A DNA stretch of 64,000 bases. Source: Piedraia hortae CBS 480.64 (lineage: Eukaryota). The notes beneath the pieces are model-generated. The model saw only the letters and a program-made list of their open reading frames with translations, was not told where the DNA came from and did no database searches. Each line of letters starts with the position of its first letter. Position 1 is the stretch's first letter. Positions 12,463 through 30,336 of the stretch are shown here, piece by piece. The translations under genes and the position numbers were made by a program. The stretch is from NCBI GenBank assembly GCA_010093745.1, contig MU005957.1, positions 620,001 through 684,000 of the forward strand. The letters run 5' to 3'.

Positions 12463-15400
12463 CATGGCCAGATCCGCGTCAATTGCTCTCAATATACTTC
12501 AATTCAGAGTATGTGAACCATGCAGTCAAGTGATCTAAGTAATTCTCGATCAATTGATTTCACCAACTGTTTGCTATCACGTGAGGTAGAAAAAGAGTTT
12601 TGATGTCAATCTATATATGTCGCAGAACTTGCCTTCAAAGAGTCAAGGTTTAAATGCGCAAGAAACTTGGCTTAGGGCGGTTATAGGCCTACATGATGGA
12701 CTCTGTGTGTCATGTCGGTTGAATCTGCCTAACATGCGCTCCCTATGTGTTGGTCGTAGACCTAAATTCCATTCGTGCTTGAGCATATGCACGTTCAGCA
12801 TCCAACGACTGGAAGGATCGTTTTCTGCATGTTCCCAAACGTAACCGGCGACGTCCTCGCGCTCAACTCGACTGGCAGAACCAACGTACGTCTTCTTGCA
12901 GGAGCAACTGCATAAATGCTGGACGTTCACGACAGTTGATATCTGTCGGACCTCAACGTGCCGATTCTGTTCCAGCGACGCTATCACAGCAATGCTCTCC
13001 ATTCTGCAGAAATCGTCGGTCTCGGTGCTGGATGGAACAGGATCGAATGTCCCAAGAAGGGCAAACTCGCGTCTTATAGCGAGTTCACGGAGCAGGAACA
13101 TGATCCGAAAGATTCTGTCGCTGGATGTGCATTTGACGAACGCCCCTGCCTGACAAGTTGCAACGCCCCGTAAACGCTCGTAGCCTTTGTACGATCCTGT
13201 GGCCCAGCGAAGCGCATATCACTACTCAAGTTCCTGGGCTCCAGGCACGCACTTTTTGGTAAGCTGCCAAATGCTTGCTGTGGGCGAAGTCGCATTAGGG
13301 GAATCAAGCATGTCTCGGACGTTCTGGCTGCTCATCAAGTCAACAAGTTGGCGTCCCGGCCCGACCATGTGCGTCCTCTCAACGCACCACCAGCCGCCAT
13401 AGCGGAGGAATAGCAGCCCCGTTCTTATAGCAGCTTTGGCTGCAATGTCTCGAGAAGTGGCTTGGCGATTGCTGAACGCCATTAACTGGCGCAGTTGTCT
13501 ATTTCCAGCCTCTTGAGTTTCTACGATAGCCCCAACGATGGAATCAAATCGTTTCACCCAATCTGGGATGTGGCAGAGCAAATGGACCTTGATTTTCCCC
13601 CAATTCTGCTGCAACCCCACAGGTTGCTCCATGATCTTAGCAAATCATCGCTCGTTTCCCGAAATTCGCTGCTCCAGGCAGGGAGGTCCTCGATCTGCGT
13701 CACCCTGAGGAGACAGGCCAGCTTGGCTGCAGCGCACCAAACGTGGAGCAGCAAATCTACTTCCGTCATGTTTTCCGAAGCATAATACGATATCAATATG
13801 CTAGGCTAAACTTGTAGAATGTTTTTGTAATCCCCTCCCGTTAGAGACATAACGTATTTAGTAATCTGTCGACGACTAACAAACTCGGTCAACCTGTCCT
13901 TATCGATTGCCATGGCACGGAGAGCAATGTCCTCGATATCACGCTTGATGGTTGGGTGGTCCATGGTGAGGTTGATCAAATGTCAAGTGATCCCCAGATG
14001 GATGCTACGGAGAAGTTCGTATGGGAAATCAACGTGAGGATTGAAACCCGGCAGGCTGTAGACGCCTGAAAGTGGTGGCTTGACCCCTTTCTTACGATTT
14101 TTCCCACAAGCTGTTGTATTTTCAACATTCCTGAGGTTGCCGGGGTATGCAAAATCCTCCCAGCTGCCAGCTTGCCTTGGGCAGTAAAAATCGCATACCC
14201 GACAAGGGTAAAGGCTGTTTAAAGAATGGGACATCATCTCTCCAACTTCGACATTGTATCCGAGGCCTTGACATACGCCGCCACGAACTAATTGTATGGT
14301 CTTCGTCTCAGGGTTGAAAGCCTTGGTGCCGCGTTCTAGCTCAGCCAAGTCTTACTTAAAAGACTCAAGCGTGGTTGAGCCTTTCATCTTCGGCCCGATG
14401 ATAGTGAATTTGTTGGCAGGTCGGTTGAAGTTGTCCTGTTTTATTTCATAGTTAAAGAGAGCCATATTGAAGAAGGGATTTTTACTTTACGTGCTTTCCC
14501 GGCGAAAGTGAAAGAGAATACCTTATGAGGGCTGGGCCTCGAGCTCCTGACCGAGCTTACCCCATCTGACCTGAAGTTGACATTGACCTGTTTCAAGTCA
14601 ATGCTCCTGCCTTCCATCTATTCCCTCAAGGCATGTGGTTTGGTCAGAAACTCCTTGAAAGTTGGATCAAGCTCTTCCCCTTTATCCGAAACAAACTTGA
14701 ATGAAGCGGAAAGGTAGACTTCAGAAATTTCAAGGCCCTAGAGGAAGATGACAGTGGTCGAATTGATAGTCGGAAACCCATCTTCCGTTGAAAGTGTAAC
14801 CGAGGTCCCACGGCCGATGGCTCCTGGAGATCGAAGCACTGTGTCGCGTACCGCCTCGCCCTTACCACTTAATCCTGACTGTATTTCGCAACCGTAGAAT
14901 AAGGCGGAGTCCGTGGAATGGGCGCGCTTCAGCTCCAAGTCATCCCCGAGCCAGACATCCGCGACTGCACTCCCAAGATCGAGGGTTTCTATTGGTAGCA
15001 AAAGCCAAAGACTCCACCTCCACTTCGTAACGTTCCAGATCTTGGAACATTTGCGGATATCCAACAATTGGTCAGTGCTGATCTCGTTCATAGGTTGTGA
15101 TAAGACCACTTGGGGATGCTGGATAAGCGGTGGACCGGGTTTGGCAAGTACCATGCAAATAGAGTCCAGCATGCTAACCACATAGAATGGCTTGCCCTCA
15201 GAATCTTGTCTACGAATAACTTCTGGGCTCGGAATGCGCTGGTCATAGGATGAAAGCTCGCTCATAGTTGGTAAATCCGACGATTTCACCTTGTCATCGA
15301 GAATATTACGAATAAGCCGAAGAATCCTACCCATGAGAGCCTAGCCTATCACATTCTTCTGGGCTCGGTAATAAAGTATGCACCTGCGCATGGGCATTAG

Positions 15401-21458: not shown

Positions 21459-21535
21459 GTTTGTTTGTTTGCCATCTAACACCGAGCTGGTGTCGTTCCA
21501 AAGGACTGACCGCGGCCTCCCAAAGGGCATGGGGA
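21459..21535 (-). mobile_element. Short Tad1-like LINE 3' end
   Basis: Minus strand reads CCCCATGCCCTTTGGGAGGCCGCGG...GACACC with an (AAAC)n tail. Confidence 0.7.
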
Positions 21536-21970
21536 TACAACGCCAGTCACACGACAGTCGTCGCCATACGAGATAAAACTGCAATACCATAAATCGGCTG
21601 TTTTCGGTCACACCACTGGTGTGCCCTCATGGGCATGCTGTCATGCTCTGGAAAACAGATTCGTCCGAGATTCTTTCCATTGGGGTCAGATGCTCTCAAT
21701 AAACTCACACAACTCAGCAGGCGTCTAATAGACTGTTAGCACGATCGGTGGTTGAGAAGTGGCGTCGACTCCAAGCTAAAATGGATCATCCAAGCTCAAC
21801 CCATCCCAAGCTGGACAGCCTTCCGGAACGTTTAACAGCTGTCGTGGTAAACATGAAAAATGTATGAGCACACATGGCCAACGGCTGGATTGGGACTCAC
21901 CTCAGCGCCCTAGAGATCATGGACGATTCGCCGGATAGATTATGTTTAGACAGCCTCCGTGGAGGGGGCT

Positions 21971-22787
21971 TATTCATTTGTGCTATTTTACGTTGGGCAG
22001 CTCGACCGCTAGGGGTCGACTGCAGCCTTCCATGGGGCATGTGGGCATGCTAGACTAGGACAATTTGGAGTTGCTATCTACCCAGCCAGCATCTCCAGCC
22101 CCGCAGGGCACATCAGTCTCCTCTTGCTGTAGTCGCCCTTCGCTTGCAAGGGAAACGTACAGTTCATGACGTTTATTAGCGCTGCACTTACCGCGGGAGG
22201 AAACAGGGAGTGTTATGAGCTCTGCTAGAAGTGGAAGTTGGTTTTAGAGGTCTAGTCCAGCAACGTGATATCAAGCTGTAGATCAGCCTTTTGAGGGACT
22301 AGACATTGGTTTCATCCGCTCCATACTGCGGGGACTGTAATTATCACTTGCATCTTAAGTTGGTATCACGTTCACGTCAGCTCTTGGCATTCTCAATCGT
22401 GCTAGTACTAGCTTTCGGCGCTAGTGCTCGCATCTCACTTTACTGGAATCGCTGATGACGCCATCGCATCGATTATATGTTTTATCAAAGACTATGCATC
22501 CGTGAAAGTTGCGGTCATCACTGCCGGGAGGCCAGCAACTGGAACAACTGGTACAAAGCCGCCATTCCGCCTCCCGCTGCGCTAACAACTCTTGAATTTG
22601 TACTGTCGACATCGTCATAACAGGGAGAGTCGCTCCAGCTTCATTCAACGCAATTGGGAGTTGGGACTGGCCCTGGTCTAGTGACTGAGCAGGCGCCCTC
22701 GTCCAGCATGTCGGCCAGCTCCTTTCCTTGGATGCCCGTATTGCTACGTCCCGGCATTGACCGAATGACTTACGATGCGGTGGCTAA
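21971..22787 (-). mobile_element. Degenerate Tad1-like LINE (RNase H remnant to 3' end); may continue beyond the copia at ~28010-29100
   Basis: 3' hairpin module at 21971-22060 and RNase H-like TGIQGKELAD near 22720. A weak RT-like NGSPLLSML lies near 28830. Confidence 0.6.
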
Positions 22788-22944
22788 TGTCAATTCTTGC
22801 CGGTGCCTCGGCATGTCGACCGTATGATAGACATTGTTGTCGCTGACAGATTAGTTGTTTCTTGTACATAGCTCCGCCCGCCGGCTCGGGCGGGCAGTCT
22901 CGTTGTCTTTCTTTCATCGCTGTTTCTTTTCAACACCAGTAATA
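22788..22944 (+). repeat. 5' LTR of the copia element
   Basis: Direct repeat of 27852-28010, with about 14 substitutions counted by eye. Confidence 0.85.
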
Positions 22945-25900
22945 GTTATAAGCCCTAAATTTCGCATTCAAAGTTAAGCTTACATGCCATCGCAACGTTC
23001 GACGCTAGCACAACCTGCACGATCTAAAAAATACTCCTTTTCGCACACACACCCAGAACGGCGCCTCCCTTCCACGGCTACAGGATACCCATTGACTTCA
23101 TCACATGGATCGATGCTATCCAAGCCTACGCGTCTTACGAGGGCATATGGCGCTATGTTGACTTCACTAGTGACGAACCCGACCTCGTTGTTCTACCTGA
23201 GCGGCCAGTTCGTCCAATCGAGGCGAAGACATTAATGAGTTCCGATTGGCGCCTGGAGTTTGGAAATCCGAACTCGAGGAATACAAGCTCGTAATGCGCG
23301 CGACGTCGAACATGTCCAGCAACGGCTGTTCCACTTTGTTCAATATGGTCATGACAAGCTTGTCTCCAGACCTCCGTGCGCGCTATCATGAAAAATTTTG
23401 GGCGATTGATTCCTTGTACACCATTCTGCGTATGATATCTAATGATTTTGGCCCAGATATTCCACACCAGAGTCGAAACCTTGAGAATAAATGGGCGTCT
23501 GCGGTCACACCAGCGGCTTTACAGCAACAAGGATTAGAGGCTTCGGTCACTGAGATCAGAAAAATCCATTCGCACCTCGAGGCCATTGGAACAGCAGTGC
23601 TGAAAGTGCCAGAAGCCCCATATCAAGGTTTTCCAAGTCTTCGTCCATTTCCTTAGTCATTACCCCTCAAGGCGAACTCCTTATGGGTTGGCAGGTCAAC
23701 CCCCGAGGAAGCCCCGCCGTTTCATGAATGGTTGAACAAGCGTATACGTCTAATCACCACATTTCAGCCCAAGACGTCGACAGCACTACACCAAGTCACG
23801 TTTGCGGCGTTCCAAGGCCATACAGACCATGTGGTAGACGTAAATACAGCCAATAGGCCCAAAGCGACAAGTCCGCCACCCACTTGCGATGCGTGTGGTA
23901 CGGAAAACCATGTTGCAAAGGATTGTCGAAGCCTCAAAGCTAAATGCTTTAGTCAACGTAGCCGATTACTTTCACAAAAGCAGTGGCAAAGACTTCTTTA
24001 TTACATTGACCACAATGAAAAATTGACTCAGTCTTGGCACGGCCAAGGTATTCGGCGCGACATACCGGACAACACAACAAAGTCTGCAACACTGAAGACG
24101 TTCTCTGCGGTGTCGACTGAGCCATCTGAACTGGTAACCTCAAACACTACAAGTGCCCCAAGAAGCTAGACTGGGTGGTACTTTCTCTGCAGTCTCACAT
24201 TGCCCAATCTCAGCGTCAATCTCTTCCCAGGATGACGGTCAAGCCACTGACCTAACAAACTCGTGGATACTGGACACAGGATCCGACTCCAACATTTGTA
24301 ATGACATAAGCAAGTTCACCCTGATCCCGGCCTACAATACGCCCCATGAAACGCTAATGGGTGATGGCCGATCCTTGGCGCTAGGCGTCGGGAAAGCTCT
24401 TCTCACTGCAACCCTCAGCACAGGCGAGCGAGTTCTATATAAGATCTCGAATGTCGAACTGATTCCCAAGATGCATACCAACGTTGTATCACTTGCACAC
24501 TTGGAGGAAAAGGGGTTGTTTTCTAAAAAGGCACCATCTGCTCTATGAGCAGGGTGGGGAATGGTGCGCCCTAAAGAAGATACATCGTCTTTACTTCATT
24601 CAACATGTCAGCCACCCATCCCATGCAACGTTGAACGACGCCACAACTTTGCCTTCCAATCCCACAGTCTCCTTAACGCTAAGTAGTGGAATTTTTTCAG
24701 CACCAACCAAACACTGCAGGCGTTCTGTGTAGATGAAGGGATAGAAATCCTGCCAATGAGCCCGCATACACCACACGAAAACTTCGCAGAGCAGTTAGGC
24801 AGCACAATTGCAACCACGGCAAGAGCCTGGTTTGTAGAATCCGGCCTGCCAGACCGGTTTTGGCCACAATTGACGTTTACGGCGGTTTAAGTCCTTAATA
24901 GGCTTCCAACCAAAGTCCTTGGATGGCAAACGCCTAAGCAAGCGCTATTGCACTGGCTAAAAACGCACAAGGCATCCAAGTTTTCCCATGTGGAGGATAA
25001 CACAGCTACGAACCTGGCTCATCTACGCCGAATTGGGTGTCGTTGTTACACACTTCCTACCAAGGTCTTGCAGCATGTTCAGAAAGTACAACTACGTGTG
25101 CACGAAAGGGCTGATACCGGGTATCTATTGGGTTACAAATCCACAAGCCAATACTAGGTCTGGATCCCTACCCTAAATTGCGTCATAAATACGCCCCATG
25201 TTATGTTCAATGAGCGTTTTGTCTACGTGAATGACAAGCATGCATCCACGCTCAAACAGCACATCACTTCCCCAACGGATCGCCTGTTGTTGGACAAAGC
25301 CCTCAAGTTCTGCAAGGTGTTCAAGGATATGAATAAGATCTGTTGGAAGATTCCATTTCGTTCGACAGTTCACCGATCAATGGTCGCCAAACCCGTCCTA
25401 AGATGCCGCACAGCGACCACTTGCCAACACTCGTCTCTCTTTCTCCGACGTCGCCACGCATGTCGTTTGAACAGCTCGAGCATTTTTGGCTTCCCTCCCC
25501 AATCGGAGACTCCACGGATGATGCGATGTGAGGCCTGACATCTGCAAATATCCTCACTCACGACCACGCAAGCAATCCAGCAAAGCCTTACATTCCATAA
25601 TGGCTGTACTGTCCTCGTCAATGGCCAAAAGCGATGGCAATGACACAGACATCATCACACCAAAGCATAGAGGAGAGGCTCTCAACTGTCCTCAAAGGGA
25701 CAAATGGTTAGAAGCCGAGCGGCGAGAGCTGCAACGATCGAGGATAACGAAACATACGTTGTTGAGCATATTTCCAGCGCCGATGGGTATCAGACTCCAT
25801 GCTTGACGTGGGTATATAGGCTGAAGAGAGATCCGGAGACAATGCAGTTTCCCAATTTAAGGCGCGGCTTTGCATGCGAGGTGATGAGCAGAGTGATCAA

Positions 25901-26920
25901 TTACTTCCCACATACGCGGCAACAAATTGCCTCAACCATATACCGCACAATGCTAGCGGTTGCAAATAAATCTGGGCTAATTGTTACCTCGTTTGACGCG
26001 GTAAGTGCATTCACCGCGGCCCCGTTGGACGAACCTGTTTTTACCCGCCAGCTACCTGGCCACGACACGAAAGGCAACGTAGGGCACCTCAGAAAGGTGC
26101 TGTATGGCCTGCGTCGCAGCCCGGTGTTATAATACAAGTTGTCGAAAGAGACACTACAAGCCTGCGGCCTCACTGTACTGAAGGAAGACGCGTGTGGCCT
26201 CGTTACAGTATTTTTTTATGAGGATGATATTAACATCATGTTTCACCTCATGCATCGACTCCACTACGAAAACATTGTGGCCAAGCTCTTCTCATCGAGG
26301 ATTAAGCTCACCAGCGGAAATGAAGTCACCTCTTTTCTCAACATACAAGTACGACGCAACTCTGATCAGCGTCGCCTCTGGCTTTCGCAGGCGGCATACA
26401 TGGGGAAGAGTGTAGCACAGTTAAAGATCCCAACCTACCGCAAAGCACCCTCTACACCGCTCCTTCAGCTCTTACAGCCATGTTCGGAACAGGCCACAGA
26501 ACAATCGCGCAACACCTACCTTCAAATCATCGGACGTTTGATATACGTCTCGTCTTCAATTAGACCCGATATTTTATTCACGGTCTCCGAGCTAGCCCGC
26601 CACGCATCTAATCCGGGACCGGCTCATCATGAAGCGGCTTCTGTTGTTTCCAGTACCTACACGGTACTCGTCATCTCGCCAATACTTACGATGGTCGCCT
26701 GAATGAATTGAATGCATTCTCGGATGCTTCTTTCGTGTCCCACTGGGATGACAAGTGTAGTCAGTCCGGCTACGTAATCTCACTATTCGGAGGTCCTATC
26801 TGTTGGCGATCCCGCCGTCAAAGTACCGTTGCAACCTCGTCGTCTGAGGCTGAGCTCCTAAGCCTATCAGATGCCGCAAGAGAACAGATAGTCCTCAATC
26901 GTTTTTTCGACGAGCTTGAA

Positions 26921-27610
26921 CTCACTGTACGAATACAAGTCAGGGTGCAGAGAACACAAAGACTGCTACGGTCACCTGTGCAGCGTCAACGGGGCAACGC
27001 TGCCCCCGCACTCAATGTCGCTGCGGTCCGGTAGTAAAGCCACTGAATACAACAAGGCAGCGAGGTTGGTCTTCGACGTTGATACCAAGGGCTACGTTAG
27101 CGCCATCCAGCGAACTAACTTCACCAAGCACGGCACTATGCGACCGACCATGTCGACCCCTATTTCAGGCAGCGGGCGGCTCATAGCTACGCCTCAGTGG
27201 CAATTTGGTGTATCGTGTGTGGCAATCTCGAGAACCTAGCTTCGAAGATGAGAGTATGTCGTAAGGTCAATGACACGGGCGGATCACAATACTGCACGTA
27301 CGTGGAAAACTGCCTGAAGGAGGGCGATTGGGTGATCGTTGTCCGTCCGCCTTCATTTCATATCTCCAACACGCAGCCGATGAAGGTCCGGTACTGGGAG
27401 CAGGATTGTGCCGGCGTACATCCGGAATCATTTAGTATGTTCCACGGCGACTTCGACAGCGACGAGATACACTTTTACCCAGTGTACGACCGTGAATCTG
27501 TGGCTGAGTGCGAAACATGGGAACATCTGCCTCTCCCTGCGTTCGTGAAAGGCATAGAAGCGTATAACTCGTACGTGAGCGATACCGAGCGCGCTAAGAG
27601 TTCGCTCACT
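26921..27610 (+). pseudogene. Foreign insert: divergent multisubunit RNA polymerase largest-subunit (beta'/RPB1-like) fragment, one frameshift at ~27229
   Basis: Ordered motifs: C....DCYGH (cf. ECPGHFG), KHGTMR..M......SGRLIATP (cf. [22 protein letters not shown]), GDWVIVVRPPSFH (cf. D.VLFNRQPSLH), FHGDFDSDEIHFY (cf. YNADFDGDEMNLH). Confidence 0.85.
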
Positions 27611-27851
27611 CTGTTCTGTGATAATTTGCGAACGATCAGGCTGTTGATAGCGGAAACGGCAGTGCTCATTATCAAACTAAGACATGTTAATATTCAAAGG
27701 CACTGGTTGAGAGAGGTCGTCCAGAAGGGACGTATTGAGATTTTGTGGATTCCCGCGGCGGACCAAACGAGGGATGGCCTTACAAAACCTCTGCCCAAGA
27801 GATGTCATGACGTCTTCATACGCGAATTGAGCCCGCAAGATATCGCACACC

Positions 27852-28010
27852 TGTCTCGATCCTTGCCGGTGCCACGGCATGTCGATCGTATGATCGACAT
27901 TGTTGTCGCTGGTAGATTAGTTGTTTCTTGTACATAGTTCCGTCCGCCGGCTCGGCCGGGCAGTCGCGTTGTCTTCCTTTCATCGCTGTTTCCTGTCAAT
28001 ACCAGTGATA
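27852..28010 (+). repeat. 3' LTR of the copia element
   Basis: Direct repeat of 22788-22944. Confidence 0.85.
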
Positions 28011-30336
28011 TGACTCGATCAAGGTCTTTAAGAAAGTTCAGCAGAATTGCTTGCTGAAGCCTTGACAGAGTGTAGCAGAATTATCGCGACTTGAAGGCAT
28101 GAAACATGTATCTTTAACCGTCCCATACCGGCTAAAGGTGTGCGCGGTCTAAACCTATGGAGATGAGATGAGAAGCGCTCGTGACTGGCCGCTTGCGATG
28201 ATTCTAGATGATAAAGTGACGACGCCGATTATGTCGTCATTGTTGGTTGGTTACGTGATGCCGAGGAGAGCAGTGGTGTTTGAAAATGCCAACGAGCCTG
28301 AAACCAGTCAAATTCAAGGTGCACCCAGTACAGCGAGACCGAATAAGGGACGGCAACCTTCGATGTTGTCGCCAAAGCGGGATTTTGACATGAGGAATAG
28401 AATCTCAGTCGACTGGGGTTCGCGAAGGTTCACAACCTTGTTCGCTGATCAGTCTATCCGGTGACTAGACCTAAAGTCGGATCGCGCTCGCATCTCCATA
28501 GAGCTTACCTCCGAGATCTTGTTTGCTGTTCAGTATCAAGGTAGACTGCTCATTTACCCGAGCAGGTGATTTTTGTAGGCCTGAGCAGGTTGACGTTCAT
28601 GTATATGACCATCATTGGGCCAGGCGAAGAAAAAAGCGGTTGGAGGTCGCGGTCAATTGTTTTTGCTGTCTCGAACGCTGTGGTATGCCTGGTTATCGGA
28701 AGCGCGCTATCCAAAATAGAAGCTATGAAAGTACGGCCTTCCAGATCCTTGTGTAGTCGTTTTGCGCATTTATTGCCGTGGGAGCGTATTGGAGGGCTCA
28801 TATCCAGCACCGCAAGCATAGATAATAACGGCGAACCGTTCGTGCGCCAAGTTCGGGCAGGGAGACGTCCCTTTTTCATCGTGAACTATCCTGTACCGCC
28901 TTGGACTTTCACATCAGTGTGGCGGCGCGACGGAGCGGGATCCGATGACATCGCTGATGCCGGAGGGGTGAACCTCCGAGGACTAGAGTGACTCCGGACT
29001 GTTGCAATAACAGGTTTCATGTTGACGTTGCAGTAGCCACCGTCGTCAAATTGAGTGCTTTTGCATAGGCCAGAAGGTATCTGGCGGTTCTTGATTGATT
29101 CCAATGCTGCTCAAACCGGCGATCTCTTCTTAATCGCGACGACAGTAAAGCGCCGGACGGTGTATCGTGAGAACATGGCCGGCAAGCCGGACCCGGAAGA
29201 AGGATCTGGCCATCTAACTCATGTATGCTTATCCAGAGCAGTCGCCATGTTCATCGATTCAACGTCCTTTGAGTGCGTGTATCTTCTCTGTTGGCCTTGT
29301 AAGAGCAATGGGTTGTACCCGTACGCATGTATCGCTACACATCATCATAGCAGTTGTCGAACATGCCATGAACCTTTTGGGAGAACTTGGTACCTTTTAC
29401 TTTTTAACTCACGCTCGAAAGGCACGGAAGGCTCGGACGGCGGTTGGTGGCACGAAGAAAGCTAGCACGTAACTTCAGGCTGTAACTGTGGCAGTTGTTT
29501 CGAGGATGCGGTACGCCGTGTGGGGGTATGAGCACAGCGATAGAGAGGCCATTAGTCTTCCTGTCCCTCTCTGAGCCGCAACTGGGCGATCGTAGGTTCT
29601 TCTCTTTGTTGGTTTTGAATGATGAGAAGATTGTTCATCTGCGGGCTTGCAGAATGTGAAGAGAATGATTGCTGGGGATACGCGGGTTTAGATCCTCGTC
29701 CGGTGAAGAGCAAGGAGATTGGAGTAGTATGATGAGGTGTCATCTTCACGCGCTAGGCCTTCTCGAGATCTACACCCGCGCTTGTAATGATCTATGGTCT
29801 TTGAAAGCGGCGCAATGAGAGAATTGGCCCCTCTGTCCTCACATGATGAAACGCTGCCTAACATGCAGGCTGCTACGGAATCAGCGAACACAGGCGAACA
29901 TCAACGCAAAGGAATGCCAGTGAGTTATGGCAAAATATTGTTGTGTTGGTAGATGACCTTAAAGAATTGTAGGACGGAAAAAATTGTGGGGTCAAATTTG
30001 ATAGCGGTGGGAAGTAATGGCGGAATTTTCTGATGCGTCCTTTCGTCTGCAACGTCAGAACAGAATTGTGCCACCCATTTGAACACAAGTCGACCATATT
30101 GACGACCCCCTCAATCGATCTTCAGCGGCCTGTTCTACGCATTGAACTTGCTTCTCCGCGAACGCTTTTCATCGAATACTTAGCAGATCTCCTCCATCTT
30201 CGCTGTGGCTATTCTCGTGTACAGTCTTCTACAGCTCATGCAAGTAGCTTTGTAGTAGACGATAGAAGATCAAATCAAAATTGAACATGTACACTACTAT
30301 GTACATTCCAACGATCGTCCAGTAATGTCATCAAGT

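Follow-up and report, generated by a model that had tools for sequence, protein, structure and literature searches.

A probable fossil of an RNA polymerase β′ gene from a virus-like element within a decayed copia retrotransposon of Piedraia hortae

Structure of the insert

We analyzed a stretch of 64,000 nucleotides from Piedraia hortae CBS 480.64 (contig MU005957.1, positions 620,001 to 684,000 of the forward strand; hereafter the window). A Ty1/copia-type long terminal repeat (LTR) retrotransposon in this window is interrupted in its RNase H region, between ...FFDELELT and AKSSLTLFCDN..., by foreign sequence encoding residues ~47–265 of a ~600-aa protein similar to β′/Rpb1, the largest subunit of multisubunit RNA polymerases (RNAPs). 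The insert carries one frameshift and no stop codon, and its borders are uncertain by at most about 10 nt. A preliminary description of this DNA had placed it at 26921–27610; the location was correct, but the exact borders are rather ~26927–27592 (666 nt). We regard the insert as very probably a molecular fossil, namely a piece of the β′ gene of a small double-stranded DNA (dsDNA) virus-like element of fungi. Its features are given below, where L081 denotes the metagenome locus encoding the closest full-length relative.

26927..27592, + strand: captured β′ gene fragment (RNAP largest subunit, virus-like element), 666 nt; tblastn with the full-length family covers 26916–27589, and a copia paralogue skips from 26916 to 27593 with 10 letters between
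26928..27230, + strand: first frame, family residues ~47–146, with the Cys/His cluster and the K-x-G-x-x-R...S-G-R segment; 76% identity to L081 β′ residues 61–166
26946..26981, + strand: CREHKDCYGHLC, Cys/His cluster; C51, H54, C57 and G59 nearly invariant in the family alignment
27126..27179, + strand: KHGTMRPTMSTPISGSGR, counterpart of K-x-G-R-x-R...S-x-R of β′/Rpb1; the family profile aligns the segment to archaeal Rpo1N and RPB1
27229..27233, + strand: single one-base frameshift; tblastn segments switch frame there for all 9 full-length queries and the element proteins
27230..27592, + strand: second frame, family residues ~147–265, catalytic double-psi β-barrel; PF00623 above cut-off, 68% identity to L081 β′ residues 166–285
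27344..27361, + strand: RPPSFH, counterpart of R-x-P-S-L-H, with the family-invariant Leu changed to Phe (PDB matches, family alignment)
27443..27466, + strand: HGDFDSDE, metal-binding aspartate motif, with the family-invariant Gly (29/29) changed to Ser (PDB matches, family alignment)

All motifs named in the preliminary description (a CYGH cluster, KHGTMR...SGSGR, RPPSFH and HGDFDSDE) were found as placed. GCREHKDCYGHLC occupies positions 26943–26981, and its Cys/His cluster is, judging by the sequence, a possible zinc site. KHGTMR...SGSGR (27126–27179) follows CYGH after a gap of exactly 50 aa and retains K112, G114, R117, S127 and R129, which are conserved in the family. The arginine of RPPSFH and the first aspartate of DFDSD are separated by 35 aa; both spacings agree with those reported before. 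The three aspartates of the (N)ADFDGD motif are all kept, and N/A of the canonical NADFDGD are H/G across the whole family. Within the range of the fragment, 30 of the 32 family columns with at least 90% conservation are retained (29-member alignment). The two altered columns, L189F and G223S (the glycine of DFDGD), are invariant in 29/29 members. The serine is encoded by AGC, which places DFDSD one G>A change from DFDGD, as noted earlier, and the single frameshift predicted near 27229 was recovered as the tblastn frame switch at 27229–27233.

Identity of the fragment

The agreement in motifs is far beyond chance. A profile match to the double-psi β-barrel domain of Rpb1 was the test of identity proposed in the preliminary description. 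The Pfam model RNA_pol_Rpb1_2 (PF00623) matched the downstream frame with E = 6.2e-6 and 27.0 bits against a gathering cut-off of 25.3, and the profile of the family matched Rpo1N/RPB1 at E ~6e-16. In the PDB, 29 of the 31 sequence matches at E ≤ 10 were RNAP largest subunits, with plant Pol V and Pol IV on top. A tblastn search with L081 β′ resulted in E = 1e-99 and identities of 76% and 68% for the two halves of the fragment; for another relative (P0122) these were 69% and 65%.

For the phylogenetic analysis the fragment was read through with an X at the frameshift and fills 36% of the columns (96 rows, quick search, LG+G4). It is sister to P0127+(P0126, L081) with a support of 95 in the SH-like approximate likelihood ratio test (SH-aLRT), deep within the family of ~600-aa element proteins; the tree contains no named Pol I–III, pGKL2 or LEF-9 sequences and has long branches elsewhere. 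The presence of Rpb1 domain-2 motifs would also be accounted for if the fragment were a pseudogene derived, with deletions, from the gene of a host Pol I, II or III. However, the element family is 65–76% identical to the fragment, while Pol II, Pol I and archaeal subunits gave single-sequence E-values of only 0.001–1.6, and the 50-aa spacing from the Cys/His cluster to K-x-G is common to the whole ~600-aa family. Since the fragment nests deep within this family, in a tree without fungal Pol I–III sequences, we consider a host pseudocopy extremely unlikely, in agreement with the earlier statement that the sequence does not derive from host Pol I, II or III.

The copy in the window is dead. It cannot work because ~45 N-terminal and ~340 C-terminal residues are missing, the frame is shifted and the invariant glycine of DFDGD is lost; the missing C-terminal residues would comprise the bridge-helix and trigger-loop part. 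The copia frame entering the insert meets a stop at 27034. One open frame of 272 codons (27119–27937) joins the barrel half of β′ in frame with the tail of the copia RNase H, and two samples of the organism show no difference in it, as would suit a domesticated, expressed chimeric gene. We nevertheless consider such a gene very unlikely. The open frame has no N-terminal half, no partner β and no bridge-helix/trigger-loop part, two family-invariant columns are altered, and the surrounding copia element is broken into roughly ten frames. The in-frame junction is simple arithmetic after a one-base frameshift.

The family of ~600-aa β′ proteins

A scan of 1.84 billion representatives yielded 117 proteins at E ≤ 1e-3, the best of which have a length of ~600 aa and align over residues ~147–265. 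A near-length search gave 85 relatives. Nine of these are named, all fungal: Ophidiomyces ophidiicola, Fusarium irregulare, Exophiala oligosperma, Acidomyces, Circinaria calcarea, Aspergillus alliaceus, A. hancockii, Puccinia sorghi and Linnemannia elongata. The longest contigs of the 85 relatives measure 18–42 kb in 49 cases and less in 35, and one is larger (153.6 kb; P0182 from Aspergillus alliaceus, the sole family member on a long contig). For comparison, the host gene for phosphoglucose isomerase is found on contigs up to the megabase scale.

PF00623 matches 29/29 aligned family members. With archaeal, Pol II, Pol I and Pol III subunits, the profile of the family gives matches of about the same strength (E 6e-16 to 1e-11), confined to the K-x-G...DFDGD region. 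An AlphaFold (AF2) model of β′ with a pLDDT of 79.9 retrieved Pol II RPB1, Pol V and vaccinia Rpo147 as top Foldseek hits, together with NCLDV (nucleocytoplasmic large DNA virus) RPB1 homologues. The top hits are all RNAP largest subunits at a probability of 1.0, but with low template modeling (TM) scores (0.17–0.29), as expected for a multi-domain protein of half the usual size. A 40-residue helix (324–363) with the invariant residues Q344, Q348 and G352 is a putative bridge helix; it is absent from the window fragment. One 807-aa relative (P0033) has a β′ subunit that itself bears an N-terminal NADAR fusion.

In IMG/VR, 161 stretches encode a relative; the 80 loci retained from these all match only the ~70–130-aa barrel, at 23–38% identity (giant viruses, phages), and none of them is a close relative.

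Gene content of the donor elements

The full-length relatives reside on intron-less, densely coding contigs, mostly of 18–42 kb, from fungal assemblies and metagenomes. A metagenome scan provided ten loci carrying the β′ gene (L081–L090), on contigs covered in part. Open reading frames (ORFs) of at least 100 codons span 77–99% of their length on both strands in the standard code, at a GC content of 31–60%; for L083 and L086 this coverage is 92–93%, and both encode Rpb2_6/7, DNA_pol_B (E 1e-34 to 1e-42), RNase_H, NADAR and P-loop (DUF5906) proteins. Inspection of the neighborhood of full-length copies, as recommended in the preliminary description, revealed a β subunit, a DNA polymerase and a capping enzyme.

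The β subunit of ~800–840 aa (Rpb2_6/Rpb2_7) is encoded beside β′ in L083, L086 and L088, and the best matches of its profile are archaeal Rpo2, RPC2 and RPB2, down to E = 1e-21. Based on these sequences, the ~600-aa β′ and the ~800-aa β would pair to a stripped-down two-barrel RNA polymerase. A family-B DNA polymerase of ~720 aa is likewise found beside β′ (PF00136, E 1e-27 to 1e-42), with archaeal B-family enzymes, pol alpha and poxvirus polymerases as best profile matches; PF03175 was hit on donor ORFs once only, with an E-value of 0.0012 below cut-off. A P-loop nucleoside triphosphatase (NTPase) beside β′ is weakly D5-like/DUF5906 (DUF5906 below cut-off; PDB-entry 7ola, E 6e-4).

A protein of ~710–750 aa is conserved in six loci. 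It gave matches to a TFIIS-type zinc ribbon (25/27 members), a methyltransferase (14/27), LEF-4 (9/27) and LEF5_C (17/27). With its sequence profile, the zinc ribbon alone matched in the PDB, and the fold was needed for the remainder. An AlphaFold model (pLDDT 82.9) has the vaccinia D1 capping enzyme as the top Foldseek hit (E 2.6e-19 over ~850 columns); further matches are cellular guanylyltransferases and the cap methyltransferase domain of African swine fever virus. According to this model, the protein is a vaccinia-D1-like triphosphatase-guanylyltransferase-methyltransferase with a TFIIS zinc ribbon. The ribbon, of TFIIS/LEF-5 type, is located N-terminally on the capping enzyme (L081 2909–5047, L086 3286–5526, L088 5256–7421), and the fusion unites functions that are separate in poxviruses (Rpo30 and D1).

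RNase H genes beside β′ are often fused to NADAR, in either order (L082 5593–6612; L087 8488–9438). NADAR enzymes take ADP-ribose off DNA, and the fusions hint at a role in counter-defence. A PIF1-like helicase (E 2e-39) was observed at L087 12999–13922, in one element lineage only. The profiles of two conserved element families, A2 (~530 aa) and A4 (~330–450 aa), had no meaningful PDB match. A conserved ~530-aa protein (L083 7145–8785, L082 11729–13306, L088 48–1655) shows an N-terminal GERPY...D stretch followed by a Ser/Thr/Pro-rich middle and has no Pfam or PDB sequence match; the GERPY...D stretch is reminiscent of a uracil-DNA glycosylase motif.

Within L088, the only whole short contig, the search for inverted repeats gave just one pair of 28 nt (79%), inside the contig. 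Two independent metagenome contigs end within the DNA polymerase gene (L081, end at 13506; L087, 1–834). This could point to circularly permuted molecules or to assemblies that broke off at a variable site. Taken as a set, the donor genes would permit transcription and replication independent of the nucleus.

A palindrome upstream of donor genes

The palindrome GCAAC-N3-4-GTTGC occurs in 29 copies in the ten loci, compared with ~0.17 summed over shuffles. Most copies (22 of 29) fall into the 8.7% of the sequence that lies outside ORFs, mostly 19–82 nt upstream of an ATG, and the palindrome is present in elements as unlike as 31% and 49% GC. It was observed in L081, L082, L083, L086, L087 and L088 (e.g. 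L086 6131–6143, and L081 upstream of 1488 and 2107). The looser forms CGAC-N3-GTCG and CAAC-N3-GTTG precede other genes. We infer that the palindrome may serve across the family as the promoter or operator of a transcription system encoded by the elements themselves. There is no copy of it in the window.

Capture into the copia element

The element around the insert (22790–28010) is a decayed Ty1/copia-type retrotransposon. Its parts are:

22790..22944, + strand: copia 5' LTR; 155-nt direct repeat, 89.7% identical to 27856–28010
22945..26926, + strand: decayed copia interior with gag, protease, integrase, reverse transcriptase (RT) and the start of RNase H, ending ...FFDELELT; broken frames with copia-like gag/pol, colinear with a ~88%-identical paralogue to 26916
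27593..27855, + strand: remainder of the copia RNase H (AKSSLTLFCDN...) reaching the 3' LTR; the paralogous copia contig resumes at 27593, and the translation agrees
27856..28010, + strand: copia 3' LTR; LTR repeat match

The LTR pair, 155 nt each with 89.7% identity, bears out the earlier placement of the insert inside a copia RNase H. As judged from translation of the frames, gag-pol is split into roughly ten of them, and the domain order between the LTRs (gag-protease-integrase-RT-RNase H) is that of Ty1/copia. These domain calls were made by reading motifs in the translations and by means of multi-copy paralogues; Pfam gave no match on the two RT/RNase H frames scanned. We take YEDDI to mark the RT and SEAEL...CDN...HW.RE to mark the RNase H. 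Repeat-induced point mutation was rejected as the source of the decay, since the 15 LTR differences comprise 9 transitions and 6 transversions and the GC content is ~0.5 throughout.

Contigs of two public sequencing runs of the same organism (X1 and X2) were mapped on window positions 21500–29500. Single contigs of X1 (26167–27907) and X2 (26167–27763) each span both junctions with 0 differences, and the junctions are therefore real. The two runs come from two studies, and the contigs show 0 gaps, although the window may have come from X1 in the first place. X2 may be an RNA data set. Nothing was found in favor of an assembly artefact or a contamination at the junctions, which we regard as barely conceivable. 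In X1 the depth is 11.7–15.4 for the insert, 12.4 for the unique flank and 94–202 for the LTRs; thus the copia family is multi-copy and the insert single-copy. The high depth of the LTR regions (22568–23101 and 27641–28174, 8–16x the single-copy depth in X1) and one contig joining 22811 to 27879 indicate that the LTR family is represented at many further places in the genome, by copies or by solo LTRs.

A further X1 contig (1642 nt, depth 13) represents a ~88%-identical copia without the insert. It runs to 26916, continues for ten letters and resumes at 27593. The existence of this 12%-diverged paralogue shows that the insert is secondary. Its ten letters are of the same length as window positions 26917–26926 and translate as LDLS, compared with LELT in the window. 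We take the insert to be 666 nt long (~667 nt before the one-base frameshift), without target duplication and with little or no loss of copia sequence. CTCACT was considered as a target-site duplication and rejected, because both copies are native copia codons according to the paralogue. A tblastn search of the window with element proteins revealed no other element genes.

In the proposed course of events, ~667 bp from the middle of a donor β′ gene would have become embedded in the RNase H region of a copia copy in a dothideomycete nuclear genome and then decayed. A piece of element DNA or cDNA would have been end-joined at a chromosome break inside a copia copy that was already resident. We consider this type of capture, as with organelle or plasmid DNA, somewhat more probable than all other routes. 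It is favored because the copia sequence is taken up again exactly where it was left, or no more than 10 nt away. Two observations weigh against it. The clean junction depends on our reading of the ten poorly aligned letters as homologous (ELELT in the window, ELDLS in the paralogue), which was made without an inspectable alignment. In addition, the same-sense orientation and the location inside a retroelement are explained without coincidence by template switching.

In this alternative, the copia reverse transcriptase would have switched from copia RNA to an element mRNA and back, and the chimeric cDNA would have been integrated. The insert indeed lies in the coding region of a retrotransposon in the same sense, and it is an internal piece of one gene, without the promoter palindrome and with no other element gene nearby. 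Copia particles assemble in the cytoplasm, and the RNAP and capping enzyme of the donors suggest cytoplasmic mRNAs. Retrotransposon sequences beside fungal dsDNA-virus fossils are noted by Gong et al. (PMC7017919). On the other hand, two independent jumps would rarely return to the same copia position or to one at most 10 nt off, the depth shows only one insert-bearing copy, and no long microhomology is evident at the junctions. Template switching is thus a possible route, but one that we hold to be less probable than end-joining at a break.

Comparison with known systems

The preliminary description had likened the insert to the stripped-down RNAPs of cytoplasmic linear plasmids, DNA viruses or selfish elements. 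Virus-like dsDNA contigs with their own RNAP were indeed found, but they are not linear plasmids of the pGKL2 type. The pGKL2-type elements of yeasts, with the RNAP K2ORF6p+K2ORF7p and the capping enzyme K2ORF3p, resemble the donors in having fungal hosts, a small dsDNA genome, a reduced two-barrel RNAP and a capping enzyme of their own, and their fragments can reach nuclear genomes as well. The pGKL RNAP is a unique β-β′ fusion with a small subunit (PMC6211774), whereas the donors encode a ~800-aa β and a ~600-aa β′ separately (L083, L086, L088), a comparison for which K2ORF6p was taken by description only. The DNA polymerase of virus-like elements (VLEs) is of the adenovirus/polinton-related kind, and according to the same source no free VLE has ever been found in Pezizomycotina (PMC13348850); the donor polymerase belongs to PF00136, with PF03175, the protein-primed kind, below cut-off. 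Donor contigs are mostly 18–42 kb, compared with 9–13 kb for the K. lactis plasmids. The separate β and β′ genes and the PF00136-type polymerase rule out pGKL2-type linear plasmids as donors.

With the Nucleocytoviricota the donors share β and β′ subunits of archaeo-eukaryotic type, a D1-like three-domain capping enzyme, a TFIIS-type ribbon, a family-B polymerase (poxvirus enzymes are among its matches) and, weakly, a D5-like NTPase. The core set of this group (family-B polymerase, D5 primase-helicase, RNAP subunits and capping enzyme) is thus found in the donors, the D5-like protein weakly. The donor RNAP subunits have roughly half the usual Nucleocytoviricota length, and the donor contigs are smaller than any NCLDV genome known to us. 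Pfam recognized no major capsid protein, A32 ATPase or VLTF3 in 78 ORFs of the partial donor contigs, many of which are matchless. The named relatives of the fragment include Dikarya, while the hosts of Mycodnaviridae are reported to be zoosporic fungi. The NCLDV-like fossils of Gong et al. (PMC7017919; "fundsalpha/betavirus") possess a full-size split RPB1 with RPB2 and RPB5, and the word "Ascomycota" is absent from the text of that paper.

The RNAP of baculoviruses and nudiviruses (LEF-8, LEF-9, LEF-4, p47) contains a similarly miniaturized β′/β pair, with LEF-9 of ~500 aa. The LEF-9 cluster is the one sharing the most language-model features with the family member P0003 (179/256, score 0.84), and LEF-9 models are among the Foldseek hits of the β′ model. 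Membership in LEF-9 was rejected, as the Pfam model of LEF-9 hit 0/29 β′ sequences at E ≤ 10. The catalytic motif of the donor family is DFDGD as in cellular enzymes, unlike LEF-9. Baculoviruses and nudiviruses infect arthropods and have genomes much larger than the donor contigs.

NUPAV-type captures and endogenous viral elements in fungal nuclei resemble the window feature in being short, promoterless, decaying pieces of an extrachromosomal gene. The fossil described here differs in its landing site in a copia RNase H, in its nearly clean insertion and in its donor family, which is apparently undescribed.

Nature of the donors and implications

We lean towards the view that the donors form an undescribed but widespread lineage, hosted by Dikarya and other fungi, of dsDNA viruses or plasmids without capsid that are small (about 24–42 kb). 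Such elements would combine a minimal two-subunit RNAP, a poxvirus-like capping enzyme fused to a TFIIS ribbon, their own family-B polymerase and a family-wide palindromic promoter. They would then represent the smallest relatives of giant viruses known so far, or else a lineage independent of, but sister to, the yeast killer plasmids. Several points weigh against reading the insert as a fossil of a virus-like element of fungi. No capsid family was recognized by Pfam in the 78 ORFs of the partial donor contigs, among which many ORFs are matchless, and the donors are known from partial contigs, with no complete genome. The fungal host of the family rests on the nine named records and the integration in the window. 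Finally, P0182, on its 153.6-kb contig, may stem from the integration of an entire gene or element into a chromosome, and some copies may thus be chromosomal.

A literature search for ~600-aa fungal β′ proteins or their contigs, with most subscription journals outside its reach, found no description. The terms "fungal", "Aspergillus" and "ascomycet" are absent from Ruprich-Robert & Thuriaux 2010 (PMC2919709). The donor family is probably undescribed, and the feature in the window represents, in our view, a new kind of fossil, although its general type is known.

If the view of the donors given above is true, the window is physical proof that such an element was once inside a dothideomycete cell. 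To our knowledge dsDNA viruses of higher fungi are essentially unknown, and according to a 2023 abstract there is no known dsDNA virus that infects fungi (PMC10640383). The fossil links small dsDNA elements of a self-transcribing family with a fungal nucleus, and the LTR pair (15 differences in 155 nt) gives an upper age bound for the contact between element and fungus. The family further offers a natural minimal multisubunit RNAP (~600 + ~800 aa) with a candidate promoter, useful for studies of a minimal two-barrel enzyme and of the origin of the transcription machinery of giant viruses and killer plasmids. The practical consequence for the window itself is small because the piece is dead.

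Chromosomal setting

The surrounding 64 kb are an ordinary fungal chromosome with genes for phosphoglucose isomerase, a cytochrome-b5 desaturase, CYK3, glycogen synthase and RpiB. The phosphoglucose isomerase is 87–88% identical to its counterparts in Oleoguttula, Hortaea and Teratosphaeria, which places the host among the dothideomycetes. Just upstream of the copia element, an X1 contig at single-copy depth skips 519 nt (window positions 21531–22051), possibly as a paralogue or a structural variant.

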